From: Escherichia phage vB_EcoM_G2494
Sequence record: MK327935.1
Direction: 5' to 3' (one strand)
Length of the DNA stretch: 64,000 nt
Every line of letters starts with the position of its first letter. Positions within the stretch are counted from its first letter, which is position 1. Position numbers and translations under genes: made by a program. Below, piece by piece: positions 4,534 through 58,703 of this stretch. Under the pieces are notes generated by a model. The model was not told where the DNA came from and searched no databases. It saw nothing but the letters and a program-made list of their open reading frames with translations.

Positions 4534-5620
4534 TGTCTCAATAAAACTTTATCAGGATTATGAGGCATTTCTAAATCATCGCTTTATAGAATTGGGTGCT
4601 ACCTTTGTTACAATGACTCTGCGTGATTCGATTCGTGGGGTGAACGAAGGATTGTTGCAATTCTATGATAATAAGGCGATGCATACAAAATTAAATGGAC
4701 GAGAGATCATTCAGATTTCGCTATCCACTGCTAATACAGATGAAGTGTTTAACCGAATCTATGGGATCTCTCATAGTAATGTAACAATTGACCAAAAATC
4801 CGACAACATTTTAACATTCCAGTTAAAGAGCTATCACGAAACACTAAACCTTAAATTTTCTCGCTCATTGACAAATAACGCTGTTAATAACGTAACTAGC
4901 ATGATTGATGCCATCTATAAGGAAGTTCCTTTATGGAAACCTACTATAAAGGGTGATAACGTTGTTATTCCTCGTTGTCCGTGGGTTAGTACCATAAATG
5001 ACTATATGGATTTTGTGAGGGCATACGGGCAAAGCGTAGAAACAGAGTCTTTCGTGTATTGCTGGGAAGATTTTGATGGTATAACGATCGCTGGACACGA
5101 TACAATATTAAAAAATGAGCCAATACCAGCTATAATCTGTGAGCCTAGACTCATGGGGCAATTTATTGATATGTCGCCTAATCTGATGGTTTTTAATTTC
5201 GAGTGGCAGACTAAGAGCAATGCTAAAGTTAAAAATTCATTTAGCAATGTGACATACACAACTATTGATTTTGTTACTAAGCAGTATAATAAAATTATTG
5301 TTGGTAATGGAGATAATATTGCACACTTTGCTCATGGTGGCGCTTATGGCGATTTAACTTATAAGAATGCGTTTTTGGAAGGTTCTAAACTTGCCACAAT
5401 AGAACAATATGATTCATATGCTACCGCCGTGTGTCACGGTAATTTCTCGTTGCGCCCCGGTATGGTTATTCGATTCTTTGATGAGAAGCAACAAGCACGC
5501 AATGATTTTATTGTTGACGAAGTGGTGCATGAAATTAGCCGAGAGCAATCATTAACTCACCTGTATATGATCGGTAACAGCGAAGAATTACAGGAAGTCA
5601 AATTTGAAGGTAAGATATAA
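4511..5620 (+). CDS. 27: baseplate hub protein gp27
   Basis: QRTGFPNVSIKLY...NEGLLQFYD...IIQIS matches T4 gp27. Confidence 0.85.
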   Translation: MQRTGFPNVSIKLYQDYEAFLNHRFIELGATFVTMTLRDSIRGVNEGLLQFYDNKAMHTKLNGREIIQISLSTANTDEVFNRIYGISHSNVTIDQKSDNILTFQLKSYHETLNLKFSRSLTNNAVNNVTSMIDAIYKEVPLWKPTIKGDNVVIPRCPWVSTINDYMDFVRAYGQSVETESFVYCWEDFDGITIAGHDTILKNEPIPAIICEPRLMGQFIDMSPNLMVFNFEWQTKSNAKVKNSFSNVTYTTIDFVTKQYNKIIVGNGDNIAHFAHGGAYGDLTYKNAFLEGSKLATIEQYDSYATAVCHGNFSLRPGMVIRFFDEKQQARNDFIVDEVVHEISREQSLTHLYMIGNSEELQEVKFEGKI

Positions 5621-13891: not shown

Positions 13892-13920
13892 ATTATAGGG
13901 GATCGATGATCCCCTGTCAA
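13892..13920 (-). promoter_or_regulatory. sigma70-like early promoter with palindromic spacer
   Basis: TTGACA, spacer GGGGATCATCGATCCCC (17 bp, inverted repeat), TATAAT. Confidence 0.65.
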
Positions 13921-16024: not shown

Positions 16025-16053
16025 ATTGTAGGGGAGTTATCCTCCCCTGTCAA
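16025..16053 (-). promoter_or_regulatory. sigma70-like early promoter
   Basis: TTGACA, spacer GGGGAGGATAACTCCCC, TACAAT. Confidence 0.55.
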
Positions 16054-16067
16054 CACTTTTTATAAAA

Positions 16068-16235
16068 TTATTTGTTAATTTCCGGTGCGTTGCTTGGATA
16101 GTAACCTTCTTTAACACCCAGGTATTTCGCAACCATCCCTACAATCTTCTGTGCTACTACAATGTCAAATTTCAGATAATCTTCGCCGTGGGTTTCAATG
16201 ATATATGCTTCACATGCTGCTTTAGTCTCGAACAT
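16068..16235 (-). CDS. small early protein (55 aa), copy 1 of duplicated gene
   Basis: ATG with cassette RBS; about 85 percent nt identity by eye to 19861-20028. Confidence 0.55.
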   Translation of the reverse strand: MFETKAACEAYIIETHGEDYLKFDIVVAQKIVGMVAKYLGVKEGYYPSNAPEINK

Positions 16236-16268
16236 TTTGATTCTCCTATTTCGTTTCGTTATGTGTGT

Positions 16269-16297
16269 ATTATAGGGGATCTCCCGATCCCCGTCAA
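16269..16297 (-). promoter_or_regulatory. sigma70-like early promoter
   Basis: TTGACG, 17-bp palindromic spacer, TATAAT. Confidence 0.55.
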
Positions 16298-16310
16298 CAA
16301 CTTTTTAAAA

Positions 16311-16784
16311 TTATTTGCACCAAATTCGAATGATTTCGTCTCGTTCAAATTTTTGCCAGATTACTCGGTCGCCCGCTGCCATAATCCTGACAAATCCAGT
16401 TATATTTCCGGTGTACTTGCTTTTAGTTTCTGCATCATATTCAAAGAATGGAGCTTTAAGATCGCTAAACTCATCTTTTCCCACAAACTTCATAACATGA
16501 CGGTGTGCGTAATATTCGCTTCTTAGTGTTGTTGTGATAGTTCCGTCATCATTTGATTTCAGATGCAATTCGGCATCTTCATAAAGACTTGCATCTCGTT
16601 GTTTACTTTCGATACCATCATTATATGTTGATTTGGTTGCACTCCAACATTGATATGTCTTATCTACATTTTCGATCTTTTCCTGTGTCATGTCAAAAAG
16701 CGGCGCAACCTTTTTCTTAGCCGCGTGCGCAACGTTGGTCATAGACAGTGCCGCAACAACCGCAATAGCAATAATTTTCTTCAT
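16311..16784 (-). CDS. secreted/periplasmic protein (157 aa)
   Basis: N-terminal signal peptide MKKIIAIAVVAALSMTNVAHA. Confidence 0.6.
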   Translation of the reverse strand: MKKIIAIAVVAALSMTNVAHAAKKKVAPLFDMTQEKIENVDKTYQCWSATKSTYNDGIESKQRDASLYEDAELHLKSNDDGTITTTLRSEYYAHRHVMKFVGKDEFSDLKAPFFEYDAETKSKYTGNITGFVRIMAAGDRVIWQKFERDEIIRIWCK

Positions 16785-16845
16785 AATATCATCTCCTTTG
16801 GTTTATATGGCGGGAGTATCTTAGCAATACTCCCTTAATACTATA

Positions 16846-17127
16846 TTATTCGTGATTAGTTTCGATGTTGTGCATTTTGCACCAGTTCAGCCAATCGCCC
16901 AGATCTTGATAGTTGATGCTTTTATCTGCTGCCATCGTTTTTGTCTTGATACCCATATGTGCGTTATGAGTAAGCATTTTTACAGTGAACTCAATTTTAT
17001 CACCTTTAGCTTTAACATCAACCAGTTTGGTCCACTGGCTACCAGCGCCGCGAATGTTCATACCAACGATGTTTCCGATGTATGCTTCTTTGTTTTTCAG
17101 GATTTCGGTTGCTTTGATGAATTTCAT
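16846..17127 (-). CDS. hypothetical early protein (93 aa)
   Basis: ORF with cassette RBS and promoter. Confidence 0.55.
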   Translation of the reverse strand: MKFIKATEILKNKEAYIGNIVGMNIRGAGSQWTKLVDVKAKGDKIEFTVKMLTHNAHMGIKTKTMAADKSINYQDLGDWLNWCKMHNIETNHE

Positions 17128-17160
17128 TTTTGATTCTCCAGTTCGTTTCGGTATGGGTGT

Positions 17161-17189
17161 ATTATGCTATGTTCTTACTTTGGTGTCAA
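17161..17189 (-). promoter_or_regulatory. sigma70-like early promoter
   Basis: TTGACA-17-CATAAT. Confidence 0.55.
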
Positions 17190-17197
17190 CAACTTTT

Positions 17198-17467
17198 TTA
17201 GATATTTTCAGAAATAAATTTTAAAACTTGACGTAAATGTTTCTCGTCTTTGATAGTCGCCGGAAGTTCTTCTTTTACTTCCTGTGCAAGATAGATATTT
17301 CCGTTCCAAGTGAAAGATCCGTCTTCGTTTACGCGATAGCTGAACATCCACTCGCAATCATTTTCGATTTCATATACACACAGAAGGGTGTAATCTTCAA
17401 AGCTATTGATTTCAAGGTCGAAGCCGTGACGTTTTGCAAAGTTGGTAGTGGTTTTAGTCAGTGCCAT
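17198..17467 (-). CDS. hypothetical early protein (89 aa)
   Basis: ORF; 32-bp upstream leader identical to that of 15733-15984. Confidence 0.55.
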   Translation of the reverse strand: MALTKTTTNFAKRHGFDLEINSFEDYTLLCVYEIENDCEWMFSYRVNEDGSFTWNGNIYLAQEVKEELPATIKDEKHLRQVLKFISENI

Positions 17468-17507
17468 TGTTTGATTCTCCTAAGTGGTATCTCGTTTCGA
17501 TGTGTGT

Positions 17508-17536
17508 ATTATGCTATAGGCGTGATCTGGTGTCAA
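17508..17536 (-). promoter_or_regulatory. sigma70-like early promoter
   Basis: TTGACA-17-CATAAT. Confidence 0.55.
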
Positions 17537-17559
17537 TGCCTTTTTTAAAATTTTATGCA

Positions 17560-17592
17560 ATAAAAAAGCCGACACTAAGGTCGGCTAATAAA
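17560..17592 (-). terminator. rho-independent terminator
   Basis: stem GCCGAC/GTCGGC flanked by A6 and T-run. Confidence 0.55.
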
Positions 17593-17593
17593 A

Positions 17594-17902
17594 TCATTTA
17601 GACAAATAATCATTCTGTGCAATCCGGTCGGCGTATGCTGGTGTTATGTCAATCGCCAGCACTTTAACGCGTGCTTTCTTGCGACCTGGGTTTTCTCGTA
17701 ACCAGTGCTCATGACCGTGAACATTTTTATACTGCGATGCTTCTTCGAAGGTACGGATCGGACCTGGGTAATCAGCGTAAAGGATCTCTAGATCTTCGGT
17801 GATGTAAAAATATACATCGTAATTGCTGTTCTCTAGCTTAAGCAGAGACTTTCGGAACATTGGGAGATTTTCGCGGGTAAATTCAAAGATATTATCTTTC
17901 AT
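17594..17902 (-). CDS. HxHW-motif small protein family member a
   Basis: YDVYFYITEDLEILYADY...HGHEHW...VLAIDI. Confidence 0.6.
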   Translation of the reverse strand: MKDNIFEFTRENLPMFRKSLLKLENSNYDVYFYITEDLEILYADYPGPIRTFEEASQYKNVHGHEHWLRENPGRKKARVKVLAIDITPAYADRIAQNDYLSK

Positions 17903-17926
17903 AGTATTATCCTCAATAGTTGGATG

Positions 17927-17950
17927 AAAAGGGGGGCTTAACGCCCCGTA
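17927..17950 (-). terminator. hairpin GGGGCTTAACGCCCC (copy 2)
   Basis: same stem-loop as 13374-13388; follows stop of 17953 gene. Confidence 0.4.
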
Positions 17951-17952
17951 TA

Positions 17953-18240
17953 TTAAAACAGTCCTTCCTGTACACCGTAGTAGAGTTCATCGCTGATAAT
18001 TTCATTAATGCGACGGTGTGCATATTCCTGATTTGCGAAGTTGTCAGCAAGTTCTACTTTAGTTTCGCCGTCATGAGTCCATTTAGTGATAACTTTACCA
18101 TCTGCAAATTTGAAGTTGAACTCTTTAGCTACCGCATCGCGTACCAGACGTGCAAACTTATTGTTGCGGATTGCATTGTCGGTTTCGTGTTCAGCGTGAG
18201 CGAATTTGTTAACTTTCAGAGTGATAGTAATGTATGCCAT
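17953..18240 (-). CDS. hypothetical early protein (95 aa), paralog of 21518-21829
   Basis: shared VAKEFNFKF / LAKEFNTKI segment. Confidence 0.55.
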   Translation of the reverse strand: MAYITITLKVNKFAHAEHETDNAIRNNKFARLVRDAVAKEFNFKFADGKVITKWTHDGETKVELADNFANQEYAHRRINEIISDELYYGVQEGLF

Positions 18241-18286
18241 AATTTGATTCTCCTAGTTAGAAAGTGTATCTCGTTTCGATGGGTGT

Positions 18287-18315
18287 ATTATGCTATACAC
18301 CCGATCTTATGTCAA
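18287..18315 (-). promoter_or_regulatory. sigma70-like early promoter
   Basis: TTGACA-17-CATAAT. Confidence 0.55.
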
Positions 18316-18321
18316 CACTTT

Positions 18322-18600
18322 TTATAAAATAATTTTTTGATATTTTTCTATGATGTTTGTGTAGGTCACATCAACCGCGAGCACCGTTGCTTCGAATCCA
18401 CCGTTTAGCCAATGGCTATGATCGTGATCGTTAAAGAAACCGAGGCCAGTGCGAAGACCTTCTTTATATTCGGCGCGTACATTCAGTTTGTCGTCGATAA
18501 ACAGATAAAACCATGAATTTTTACTAGGATTGATGATACAACCTTTCAGATTAGGGAGAATATCACGACTAAGAATAAACTTATCACCTACTTTGAACAT
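18322..18600 (-). CDS. HxHW-motif family member b
   Basis: WFYLFIDDKLNV...DHDHSHW...VLAVDV; ATG at 18600 with GAGGA RBS. Confidence 0.6.
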   Translation of the reverse strand: MFKVGDKFILSRDILPNLKGCIINPSKNSWFYLFIDDKLNVRAEYKEGLRTGLGFFNDHDHSHWLNGGFEATVLAVDVTYTNIIEKYQKIIL

Positions 18601-18604
18601 AATA

Positions 18605-18925
18605 TTAGTCCTCACTTATAAGGTCAAACCAATTGTTTTTCGCATAATGCTTAATGCGTGCTTGATCTGCTTCCGCTGGTGATAGATTCCATGCGATCAC
18701 TACAACTTCTGACGCATCGTCATCCGTTTCTGATATCCAATGATTGTGATTCATACAGTTATTTGCTATCGCGTGAGCAAATGATCTCATTACTGGAGAC
18801 GTATAATCATAGTAACGGATTTTCAGATTTTCATCAACGTACAAATAGATCGTATAAGGTTTATATTCAGTAACCAGTAACAGACAGTTACGCAATTCTG
18901 GGAAAATCTTTTTAGTTAATTTCAT
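18605..18925 (-). CDS. HxHW-motif family member c
   Basis: YTIYLYVDENL...NHNHW...VVIAWN. Confidence 0.6.
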   Translation of the reverse strand: MKLTKKIFPELRNCLLLVTEYKPYTIYLYVDENLKIRYYDYTSPVMRSFAHAIANNCMNHNHWISETDDDASEVVVIAWNLSPAEADQARIKHYAKNNWFDLISED

Positions 18926-19127
18926 AGTCTATTTCTCCGTAATACACGGTAATCCATTTTTCTTCATACTTTGTATCTTTCCAACACACAATCCCGTTTA
19001 CTGTGCAATCTTTGGAATTGACGAATGATTCATATTGTTCTGCGTCTTCCATCATTGCATGAGCGGTCTTTTCATCGAATATATCGCAGATCGCTTTATA
19101 TGCTCAATAATCTTTAAATTTGCTCAT
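18912..19127 (-). pseudogene. paralog of 19130-19339 interrupted by in-frame TGA at codon 8
   Basis: MSKFKDY-TGA-AYKAI...; TGA at 19106-19104 where intact copy has AAA; frame otherwise open for 71 codons. Confidence 0.45.
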
Positions 19128-19129
19128 AA

Positions 19130-19339
19130 TTAAGACCACTCAAGAGTTTTTGAAAACACATCTATCCATTGTTGAGTATATGCGGTTTCTTTCCATGATA
19201 CAATACCAGTAGAATAATGGTTTTTGTTTCCAGAAAAGGACGGGCATTTTGATGCGTCTTCCATCATCTTTTCGGCGAACTCTGGTTCGTATACTCGCAA
19301 GATCTGTTGATATGCTTTGTAGTCTTTAAATTTGCTCAT
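19130..19339 (-). CDS. hypothetical early protein (69 aa)
   Basis: intact copy MSKFKDYKAYQQ... Confidence 0.55.
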   Translation of the reverse strand: MSKFKDYKAYQQILRVYEPEFAEKMMEDASKCPSFSGNKNHYSTGIVSWKETAYTQQWIDVFSKTLEWS

Positions 19340-19604
19340 AATCGTTAACTACCTTATCAGCTTCTTTTATTGTTTTTACATCAACTGCGATAACCCGTAA
19401 AGGTTCGTCATGGTTCCACCAATGATCGTGAATATCGGCTTGTGATTTATCACCAAAGGAATCACGAATATCATTTTTACATTTATAGCTAATGTGACCT
19501 TCATAGTCAACATAAAGGTAATTATCGAAAATCGGCGTTTTTAAGATCATACCGAAAAATCTTTCTTTGTGTGTCTTATCCAGTGTTGCAGTAATTCGCA
19601 TCAT
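19326..19604 (-). CDS. HxHW-motif family member d
   Basis: YLYVDYEGHISY...HDHWW...VIAVDV. Confidence 0.6.
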   Translation of the reverse strand: MMRITATLDKTHKERFFGMILKTPIFDNYLYVDYEGHISYKCKNDIRDSFGDKSQADIHDHWWNHDEPLRVIAVDVKTIKEADKVVNDYEQI

Positions 19605-19616
19605 AATATATTCCTC

Positions 19617-19796
19617 TTAGAAAGGGATGGTCATTTCTTGAGCTTGTACATTCTCGTTAGGATTAAACTTCATCCAACCGATATTGTCTACCAGCATATG
19701 CACATTTTTATCATATCCTACGTGAGTAGTCAACACTAAATGTGATTTACCTTCAACGATGATTTCCATGTACTTCTGAACTTCGATAGCTTTCAT
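19617..19796 (-). CDS. small early protein (59 aa)
   Basis: ATG with cassette RBS GGAGAATCAAA; not in ORF track. Confidence 0.5.
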   Translation of the reverse strand: MKAIEVQKYMEIIVEGKSHLVLTTHVGYDKNVHMLVDNIGWMKFNPNENVQAQEMTIPF

Positions 19797-19860
19797 TTTG
19801 ATTCTCCGTTTGTTGTCTTGATGGGAGTATCTTACTACTCCCTTTAATCATTGTCAACGA

Positions 19861-20028
19861 TTATTTGTTAATTTCCGGTGCGTTGCTTGGATAGTAGCCT
19901 TCTTTAACACCCAGATATTTTGCAACCATTCCGGTGATCTTCTGTGCTACTACGATATCGAATTTCAGGTAGTCTTCACCGTGGTTTGCTACAATGTATG
20001 CTTCGCATTCTGCTTTAGTCTGGAACAT
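19861..20028 (-). CDS. small early protein (55 aa), copy 2 of duplicated gene
   Basis: ORF track 86-aa call over-extends through promoter; true ATG at 20028 behind cassette RBS. Confidence 0.55.
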   Translation of the reverse strand: MFQTKAECEAYIVANHGEDYLKFDIVVAQKITGMVAKYLGVKEGYYPSNAPEINK

Positions 20029-20062
20029 TTTTGATTCTCCTATATCTCGTTGGTATGTGTGT

Positions 20063-20091
20063 AGTATAGGGGATCGGTGATCCCCTGTCAA
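20063..20091 (-). promoter_or_regulatory. sigma70-like early promoter
   Basis: TTGACA, palindromic 17-bp spacer GGGGATCACCGATCCCC, TATACT. Confidence 0.55.
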
Positions 20092-20101
20092 CAACTTTTT
20101 T

Positions 20102-20410
20102 TTATTCTTCATCTTCATCATTATCTTTATATGCGTACTTCATAAATTTGTCTGCTACTTCGTCCGCGTTTTCAGGTTCTACGTCTGACGCTAGGACAAC
20201 AGCTAGTTCGGTTTTGTCGTTTCCATCATACCAATGATTATGAGTGTCGTTTTCTTCGATATAAAACGAATCAGTTGGAGTTGTGCGACAATATACGTCT
20301 AAATTCCCATCGATATAAAAGATCCAATCCGAATACAAAATGATTGTTTTAGCAAGATTTTTATTGTCTCTCACAAAAGGTTCTGAGACAAATAGCTTAG
20401 TTTGTTCCAT
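20102..20410 (-). CDS. HxHW-motif family member e
   Basis: WIFYIDGNLDVY...HNHWY...AVVLASDV; ATG at 20410 with GAGGAAAA RBS. Confidence 0.6.
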   Translation of the reverse strand: MEQTKLFVSEPFVRDNKNLAKTIILYSDWIFYIDGNLDVYCRTTPTDSFYIEENDTHNHWYDGNDKTELAVVLASDVEPENADEVADKFMKYAYKDNDEDEE

Positions 20411-20669: not shown

Positions 20670-20978
20670 CTACATTACGCAAAATGGCGTGTCAATACTT
20701 CTTTTTGCTGTTCCGCTAAGATTCTCGATCTCTCCTGGCATAACATCAACCGCCAGAACTTCTACAACATCCTCTGATCCTAACCAGTGAGTATGACCTT
20801 TGTAGAACTTGATATCCCATTTATCGCTATCGCTAGCCCACCACACATCACCGTCTATAAAGTTGATGTAAAGCACACTACGACACATTGAATTAGTTAC
20901 TTTCAATACTGCGCCTTTCATCTCTTCCACGGTATGGTCTTCCATTTTGAAGACCTCGCCTACCTTAACTTTTGCCAT
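20670..20978 (-). CDS. HxHW-motif family member f
   Basis: LYINFIDGDVWW...HTHWL...VLAVDV; start coupled to stop of member g (TAACATG). Confidence 0.6.
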   Translation of the reverse strand: MAKVKVGEVFKMEDHTVEEMKGAVLKVTNSMCRSVLYINFIDGDVWWASDSDKWDIKFYKGHTHWLGSEDVVEVLAVDVMPGEIENLSGTAKRSIDTPFCVM

Positions 20979-20979
20979 G

Positions 20980-21246
20980 TTACATGTTCCGAATATGTTT
21001 AGATGCATCTTCCAGTTCGTCGATAGTGACACTGTGAGCCAGTAAGTGTACTGGTTGTGGTTCTTCACCTTCCATAGTATTGATCAGATGACCGTTTCCT
21101 GGGTGGAATGTATCGTTGCCGTTCCAAATAGCATACACATCATCTTCTGTTACGTAGATAATAAGTCCAATCGGTGATTCTGGTAATTGAAAAATTTTAC
21201 CCACTGCATCTTTGCGATTGTCTACGATATCTTTGACTGTCTTCAT
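20980..21246 (-). CDS. HxHW-family-related protein g (divergent)
   Basis: LIIYVTEDDVYAIW...HPGNGHL...HLLAHSV. Confidence 0.5.
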   Translation of the reverse strand: MKTVKDIVDNRKDAVGKIFQLPESPIGLIIYVTEDDVYAIWNGNDTFHPGNGHLINTMEGEEPQPVHLLAHSVTIDELEDASKHIRNM

Positions 21247-21265: not shown

Positions 21266-21445
21266 TTACATCACAATCACGCCAGCCGTAGAAAGTTGAT
21301 GTTTCAACTGAGCATTTTCTGCTACTGTCAAATCAATAATTTCTTGTGACGCTGCAATCATATAGCCATTGGTGATATTGTTTTGCATCAGTTCAATGGT
21401 TTCTTCGTTGTAGCGGATTTTAGCGATGATTTCGTTGAAGTTCAT
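21266..21445 (-). CDS. small early protein (59 aa)
   Basis: ATG behind cassette RBS; not in ORF track. Confidence 0.5.
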   Translation of the reverse strand: MNFNEIIAKIRYNEETIELMQNNITNGYMIAASQEIIDLTVAENAQLKHQLSTAGVIVM

Positions 21446-21479: not shown

Positions 21480-21509
21480 ATTATAGGGGAGTTTAACCTC
21501 CCCTGTCAA
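21480..21509 (-). promoter_or_regulatory. sigma70-like early promoter
   Basis: TTGACA, palindromic spacer (18 bp), TATAAT. Confidence 0.5.
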
Positions 21510-21874: not shown

Positions 21875-21903
21875 AGTATAGGGGATACGTGATCCCCTGT
21901 CAA
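21875..21903 (-). promoter_or_regulatory. sigma70-like early promoter
   Basis: TTGACA, spacer GGGGATCACGTATCCCC, TATACT. Confidence 0.55.
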
Positions 21904-34095: not shown

Positions 34096-34124
34096 ATTAT
34101 AGCGGGGATTTCTCCCCGCGTCAA
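34096..34124 (-). promoter_or_regulatory. sigma70-like early promoter
   Basis: TTGACG, palindromic spacer CGGGGAGAAATCCCCGC, TATAAT. Confidence 0.55.
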
Positions 34125-58674: not shown

Positions 58675-58703
58675 AGTATAGGGGATCGCCGATCCCCTGT
58701 CAA
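58675..58703 (-). promoter_or_regulatory. sigma70-like early promoter
   Basis: TTGACA, spacer GGGGATCGGCGATCCCC, TATACT. Confidence 0.55.

Follow-up and report, generated by a model that had tools for sequence, protein, structure and literature searches.

Copies A and B, the two 55-codon genes compared here, are quite likely an old paralog pair of a small early ORFan, each carried on a one-gene PeSL ('promoter-early stem-loop') cassette in the hyperplastic region HPR3 and recombining with the other. PeSL elements have been described in RB49 and phi1 (PMC2839356) and were termed 'mobile regulatory cassettes' (Arbiol et al. 2010, PMC2839356). The positions of the two genes and of the segment between them, given in coordinates of the window (the whole 64,000-nt stretch that was analysed), are as follows.

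16068-16235, minus strand: copy A, 55-aa ORFan gene, ortholog of RB49 ORF191 (RB49p191), phrog_8009
19861-20028, minus strand: copy B, 55-aa paralog, ortholog of RB49 ORF205 (RB49p205), phrog_8009
16236-19860, minus strand: intervening segment with 13 small ORFan genes, homologs of RB49 ORF192-204

Two one-gene cassettes in HPR3

The products of copies A and B are MFETKAACEAYIIETHGEDYLKFDIVVAQKIVGMVAKYLGVKEGYYPSNAPEINK and MFQTKAECEAYIVANHGEDYLKFDIVVAQKITGMVAKYLGVKEGYYPSNAPEINK, respectively. Both ORFs, with the coordinates and translations reported in an earlier note on this DNA, are present on the minus strand and therefore in direct orientation. The coding sequences share 145 of 168 nucleotides (86.3%), so that the earlier by-eye estimate of about 85% was accurate, and the proteins are identical at 49 of 55 residues (89%; BLASTP E = 1e-37), which is far beyond chance. 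In a repeat search of the window, the pair was detected as a gap-free direct repeat of 172 nt at 87% identity (16067-16238 and 19860-20031) with a spacing of 3793 nt, corresponding to the 3.8 kb noted before. The homology specific to A and B starts approximately at the Shine-Dalgarno sequence and stops one base beyond the stop codon (TAAT), and upstream of it only the likeness generic to all PeSL elements was observed. The PeSL of copy B is 71% identical to that of copy A, yet 83-87% identical to the PeSLs of unrelated genes; the 5'UTR of copy A is 84% identical to that of copy B, yet 95% identical to that of the gene at 21266-21445.

An 86-aa version of copy B with a start at 20121, taken from the mechanical ORF list, was rejected for the ATG at 20028, which is preceded by the Shine-Dalgarno sequence GGAGAATC (20033-20040) and a consensus promoter (20063-20091). 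The 55-aa protein is regarded as the real product of copy B because the longer ORF contains the promoter of B and the annotated orthologs are all 168 nt long.

The window is Krischvirus DNA; the region is 92-97% identical to genomes of this genus, with Sf20, TB34, G2248, ECD7, Phi1, JSE and RB49 among the matches. Krischvirus comprises the RB49-like 'pseudo-T-even' T4-type coliphages of the Straboviridae. The pair sits among small leftward genes located between alt/DNA methyltransferase and HNH endonuclease/DNA ligase gp30, and this stretch corresponds to the hyperplastic region HPR3 (Arbiol et al. 2010, PMC2839356). RB49 ORF191 (NP_891762) and ORF205 (NP_891776), together with their orthologs in Phi1, JSE, Sf20 and ECD7, are the same genes in the same order and with the same neighbours. 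At the amino acid level, copy A and the ORF191 orthologs are 98-100% identical; copy B is identical to ORF205 of RB49, Sf20 and JSE, while ORF205 of Phi1 and ECD7 differ by 1-2 residues. Nothing essential distinguishes the window from RB49 and the other orthologous loci. A different position of copy A in RB49, suggested by joined megablast pieces, was rejected, as the RB49 annotation has the same order as the window.

The elements that surround the two genes were located as listed below; the z-scores refer to minimum free energy hairpins compared with shuffled sequences.

16269-16297, minus strand: PeSL upstream of A, TTGACG-N17-TATAAT with the stem-loop GGGGATC-GGGA-GATCCCC in the spacer, hairpin z = -2.5
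20063-20091, minus strand: PeSL upstream of B, TTGACA-N17-TATACT with the stem-loop GGGGATC-ACC-GATCCCC, z = -3.1, homolog of RB49 PeSL206/205
16239-16246, minus strand: Shine-Dalgarno sequence GGAGAATC of copy A, read from the sequence and common to neighbouring cassettes
20033-20040, minus strand: Shine-Dalgarno sequence GGAGAATC of copy B, read from the sequence
16025-16053, minus strand: PeSL downstream of A, promoter of the ORF190 homolog and 3' boundary of the A cassette, z = -5.5
19829-19857, minus strand: promoter-like site downstream of B, TTGACA-N17-TAAGAT, 3' boundary of the B cassette, z = -3.7

Each copy is a single-gene cassette consisting of an AT-rich tract, a sigma-70 promoter with a G4/C4 stem-loop in its spacer, and the Shine-Dalgarno sequence GGAGAATC followed by the ORF. 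The promoters lie directly upstream of the ORFs and each match 11 of the 12 sigma-70 consensus positions, and in both the G-run/C-run stem-loop is placed between the -35 and -10 boxes, as in PeSLs. The location upstream of an ORFan in a hyperplastic region of a T4-type genome (HPR3 of RB49) is also that of PeSL cassettes, and comparative genomics revealed recombination between the flanking PeSLs with chimeric junctions. By their promoter features, both copies constitute transcription units behind sigma-70-consensus promoters with a stem-loop. The next promoter with a stem-loop starts 15 nt past the stop codon of A and 3 nt past that of B; the stem-loop of the latter site (GGGAGTA/TACTCCC) overlaps its -10 box. 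In RB49, cloned PeSL206/205 resulted in about 13,000 Miller units, a strong promoter, and terminator activity was reported for the stem-loop of PeSL211/210 (PMC2839356).

Among Krischvirus genomes, the stem-loop of the B-side PeSL (20069-20085, minus strand) exists in two versions that mirror each other. The form GGGGATC-ACC-GATCCCC was found in this window, MIZ4, Phi1, Sf20 and PTE-Eco09, and the form GGGGATC-GGT-GATCCCC in RB49, Brandy, ECD7, JSE, UPWr_E1 and Cognac. The hairpin is thus inverted as a unit, which looks like hairpin flipping or template switching at a palindrome. Further canonical PeSLs (TTGAC-G4...C4-TAnnnT) are present on the minus strand at 13892-13920, 21480-21509, 21875-21903, 34096-34124 and 58675-58703; two of these fall outside the hyperplastic region. 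In the whole window (1-64000), ARAGORN detected neither tRNA nor tmRNA genes, and all Rfam families stayed below the gathering threshold.

Other features of the region were noted in parallel. The window carries the rare ORFan192 cassette, like RB49, and a 267-nt extra gene, like JSE and UPWr_E1. The ORFan192 homolog (16311-16784, minus strand, 157 aa), located directly upstream of copy A, has an N-terminus resembling a signal peptide and no Pfam or PHROG match, and among phage records it was found only in RB49, MIZ2/3/6 and FL38; ORFan192 was the model cassette of Arbiol et al. 2010 (PMC2839356). The extra gene (20980-21246, minus strand, 88 aa) and the start of the ORF208 homolog overlap by 11 nt. 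An equally long gene is annotated at this position in JSE and UPWr_E1 and not in RB49, Sf20, Phi1 or Cognac; by these annotations it is another cassette-level presence/absence polymorphism.

All 13 genes between the copies are ORFans without functional annotation in the Pfam and PHROG searches. Six diverged ORFan paralogs, homologs of RB49 ORF197, 199, 200, 203, 206 and 208, are scattered in the hyperplastic region (17594-17902, 18322-18600, 18605-18925, 19326-19604, 20102-20410 and 20670-20990, minus strand). They share the motif H-x-H-W ... V-L/I-A-V/I-D, the blastp E values were between 0.09 and 4e-13 in the 12 of 15 pairs that scored, and 2 of the 6 belong to phrog_9345. An adjacent paralog pair (18912-19055 and 19130-19339, minus strand), homologous to RB49 ORF201/202, has 41% amino acid identity (E = 7e-11) and was also seen as a 97-nt DNA repeat at 70%. 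An older and larger segmental duplication with X-H-...-55aa blocks was rejected, since the all-versus-all blastp resulted in other paralog families and no colinear second block. To judge from its gene families, the hyperplastic region has grown largely through duplication and divergence.

Conservation, protein family and age of the pair

At least one copy was found in 58 of 58 Krischvirus records, two copies being present in 51 and one in 7. At least one copy appears to be needed, as none of the 58 genomes is without both. The protein of copy A recurs with 100% identity in more than 40 Krischvirus records, and all deposited copies are annotated as 'hypothetical protein'.

Both proteins matched phrog_8009 in full length (residues 1-55 against positions 1-55 of the 55-position profile) with E values of 6.8e-38 for A and 1.2e-38 for B; the function of this family is unassigned, as is that of phrog_485, to which a weak match was obtained. 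No matches were detected in Pfam (E <= 10), in PADLOC or in the PDB sequence profile search (E <= 10). The exhaustive phmmer search of 1.84 billion representative proteins resulted in 3 matches, one of them marginal, and the word-indexed search of 5.8 billion proteins in 4 matches. The AF2 model, of low confidence (pLDDT 67), consists of a two-helix hairpin (residues 5-16 and 18-39) and a tail, GYYPSNAPEINK, which is invariant and predicted to be disordered. A Foldseek search of this model against BFVD returned nothing below E = 1.8. On the basis of the strong early promoter, the place among accessory ORFans and the retention in every genome of the genus, the protein may tentatively be regarded, with low confidence, as a small early host-takeover/host-interaction or accessory factor.

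Beyond the genus, homologs were detected in a metagenomic protein (83% identity) and in the Swiduovirus siphophages swi2, D10, SeSz-2 and Bas81 (72-74%), and further in a 53-aa metagenomic protein (59%) and some Aeromonas phages. Every homolog outside the genus is more distant from A and B than A is from B. Additional loci were found in IMG/VR (2) and in metagenomes (4), and the context of the P0003 contig is unrelated. Concerning a bacterial or prophage origin, no homolog was present in 185,579 species genomes.

The substitution rates determined for the pair and for the alleles of each copy are given below.

A versus B, this window: dN 0.055, dS 0.747
Within A alleles (12 sequences): dN 0.004, dS 0.109
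Within B alleles (16 sequences): dN 0.003, dS 0.129

The dN/dS of the window pair was about 0.07, which indicates that both copies encode proteins under strong purifying selection. Between A and B, dS (0.75-0.93) was about 6-7-fold higher than the within-copy diversity in the sampled genus (0.11-0.13). Judged by this synonymous divergence, A and B are an old paralog pair that predates the diversification of the genus. A recent near-identical duplication was rejected on the same values, as in a recent segmental duplication the between-copy dS would be equal to or lower than that among related genomes. The label 'near-identical' in the earlier note was thus overstated, the synonymous sites of the two copies being well diverged. 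A-type and B-type sequences were distinct in all 18 related loci covered by the nucleotide-level comparison, and six amino acid differences (positions 3, 7, 13, 14, 15 and 32) divide the two types almost everywhere; these fixed differences may reflect specialisation.

The high dS between the copies would also be compatible with A and B having entered the genome separately, as homologous cassettes of different donor phages. The family is mobile among unrelated phages, namely the above-mentioned Swiduovirus siphophages and some Aeromonas phages, and PeSL mini-circles, which can be packaged, might be transferred from phage to phage (PMC2839356). However, A and B are the closest relatives of each other (89% amino acid identity compared with 83% for the metagenomic protein and 72-74% for the siphophages), both end in the full tail ...APEINK, which is missing from swi2 and P0005, and each copy shows derived residues of its own when compared with the outgroups, the pattern that a single duplication would leave. 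Acquisition from a Krischvirus-like donor would be indistinguishable from intragenomic duplication. Overall, separate acquisition of the two copies is considered unlikely, and descent from one duplication is preferred.

Gene conversion and deletions at the copies

Mosaic alleles were detected in several related genomes. The B copies of Brandy and PTE-Eco09 contain six consecutive A-type synonymous sites (nt 51-75). Copy A of PTE-Eco09 (locus 4916-5168) has a B-type 5'UTR and B-type first 24 nt followed by an A-type remainder, resulting in a chimeric protein. Copy A of Sf20 is B-type at sites 108 and 114, and sites nt 141 and 153 are polymorphic in both paralogs. From the pattern of alleles, these mosaics show gene conversion between A and B. 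In the window, the 3' third of the ORF is 95.5% identical between the copies versus about 80% elsewhere in the ORF, a contrast which is not significant (p = 0.08-0.19). Nucleotide-level constraint on this third was rejected, as it carries ordinary synonymous polymorphism across the panel, partly common to A and B; partial homogenisation via gene conversion is the better reading. Separately, copy A of JSE (locus ~4916-5000) was observed to have a B-type stem-loop and an A-type UTR, with an extra 312-nt gene inserted upstream.

The proposal of the earlier note that the repeats can mediate deletion or duplication of the intervening genes held for deletion, as Cognac (MZ504877) and FL04 (PP358550) have lost the block; for duplication no counterpart was found, as none of the Krischvirus records has more than two copies or a duplicated intervening block. 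Cognac and FL04 each contain one hybrid copy, which is preceded by the ORF206 homolog (the context of B) and followed by the ORF190 homolog (the context of A). The intervening ~3.5-3.6 kb are absent from the whole genomes of both phages, the coverage being 2% and 5%, respectively, with short PeSL-like matches only. Judged from these two phages, the 13 intervening ORFans are dispensable for a viable phage.

The junctions of the two deletions differ. In Cognac, B-type sequence covers the stem-loop and 5'UTR and gives way to A-type sequence at the A-run in front of the ATG, which places the crossover interval between the Shine-Dalgarno sequence and the first codons, in or beside the Shine-Dalgarno sequence. 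In FL04, the -35/5' arm alone is B-type and the sequence is A-type from the loop onward, with the crossover in the -35/stem part of the PeSL. Cognac and FL04 are not sisters in the ligase, alt or methyltransferase trees, and each nests among two-copy phages. Since the junctions differ and the phages are not sisters, two independent deletions would be the parsimonious reading.

Both assemblies are of the short-read era, and the single-copy state of Cognac and FL04 could in principle have resulted from repeat collapse during assembly. This is highly improbable: repeats of 168 nt with just 86% identity are easily resolved by assemblers, a collapse would leave a 3.6 kb orphan contig of high coverage, the two genomes originate from different laboratories and have different junctions, and the junctions resemble ordinary PeSL recombination products.

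Other losses were found around copy A. In Brandy, JK32 and UPWr_E1, copy A alone was lost and one chimeric PeSL remains, in which the promoter and stem-loop of A are joined to the 5'UTR of ORF190 with the crossover just past the -10 box. MIZ4 is without copy A and its downstream genes through ORF186; deletions of several genes can thus arise in this region between non-paralogous cassettes as well. MIZ5 has a single B-type match at the same coordinates as MIZ4.

Both block-deletion junctions map to the PeSL/5'UTR, outside the ORF, and the known PeSL recombination is therefore at least as responsible for them as the ORF homology; the contribution of the 168-nt ORF homology to the block deletions is unproven. 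The strongest rival explanation is that the deletions were purely PeSL-mediated, the PeSLs of A and B acting like any PeSL pair and the ORF paralogy having no part. It agrees with the position of both junction intervals upstream of or at the start codon, which is the zone where the mini-circle junctions of non-paralogous cassettes are located (PMC2839356). A junction of this kind likewise accounts for the loss of copy A alone in Brandy, JK32 and UPWr_E1, and the larger deletion of MIZ4 occurred between non-paralogous cassettes. On the other hand, two independent multi-gene deletions used exactly the PeSLs which front the paralogs, among about a dozen promoter/PeSL sites, and a coincidence is unlikely, although this argument is confounded by selection on which deletions are tolerated. 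The conversion tracts (nt 1-24 in PTE-Eco09, nt 51-75 in Brandy and PTE-Eco09) lie well inside the ORFs, which indicates that the coding sequences of A and B pair with each other. A purely PeSL-mediated origin of the deletions is accordingly a serious possibility but somewhat doubtful. With the paralogy taking part, the ~170 nt of extra ORF homology beside the two PeSLs probably favours pairing of the A and B sites.

Origin of the pair and comparison with known systems

Mini-circles carrying ORFs 191-194 were found by inverse PCR, and their crossovers lay in the interval from the -10 box to the ATG (PMC2839356). The second copy could have arisen when a PeSL-bounded cassette was excised as such a mini-circle and reinserted at another PeSL, either in the same genome or in a co-infecting related genome; this would be the reverse of the mini-circle reaction proposed by Arbiol et al. 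2010 (PMC2839356). Reinsertion would explain why the homology is confined to the stretch from the Shine-Dalgarno sequence through the stop codon and why a -35 box abuts the 3' end of both copies. We infer duplication through cassette reinsertion from these boundaries only. The A and B cassettes recombine with each other, as seen from the independent deletions of the 13-gene block in two natural isolates and from short conversion tracts in others.

A more far-reaching version of this mechanism is speculative and rather improbable. The paralogs and their PeSLs would then serve as long terminal direct repeats bounding a module of 3.8 kb with 13 ORFans, which would be excised time and again and might travel as a single circle between co-infecting Krischviruses; selection would maintain two diverged 55-aa versions for different host targets or variants. 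If true, the pair would combine the roles of a functional gene duplicate and of the 'hinge' in a composite mobile module, a higher order of organisation than the single-gene PeSL cassette.

The loss of the block is of the same kind as direct-repeat losses reported elsewhere. In the spontaneous 'ORFanage' deletion of a cyanophage (PMC4503421), a non-essential ORFan block between direct repeats was likewise lost from a viable phage, and classical short-homology deletions (Albertini et al. 1982, cited in PMC4122927) belong to the same type. Unlike in these cases, as far as they are described in the cited passages, the repeats considered here are functional, selected paralogous genes with promoters, and one hybrid copy is always kept.

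The closest likeness is to the PeSL cassettes themselves (PMC2839356; PMC4122927), with which A and B share the sigma-70 early promoter, the Gn-loop-Cn between the -35 and -10 boxes, the AT-rich tract, the Shine-Dalgarno sequence with an ORFan, and the hyperplastic region. The junctions also fall in the mini-circle crossover zones of those papers (-10 to ATG, or the AT-rich/-35 part). A term search of both papers found no mention of a duplication or paralogy of ORF191/205, and their searched passages do not mention mapped deletion junctions or conversion tracts. The papers, in the parts consulted, deal with gain, loss and replacement of cassettes between phages, whereas here the ORF of one cassette occurs twice per genome; the ~170 nt of extra homology beside two PeSLs and the gene conversion between the two ORFs are likewise unlike the cassettes published there.

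The A/B pair is an ordinary component of the well-described PeSL system, and both genes already have annotated counterparts in dozens of genome records. The mapped junctions and conversion tracts are small additions and not a new kind of thing, with little importance beyond phage comparative genomics. The retention in 58 of 58 relatives makes the 55-aa ORFan a reasonable target for work on early host takeover or anti-defence. Compared with the known system, the pair illustrates cleanly, in natural genomes, a prediction of the PeSL model hitherto demonstrated mainly by inverse PCR.
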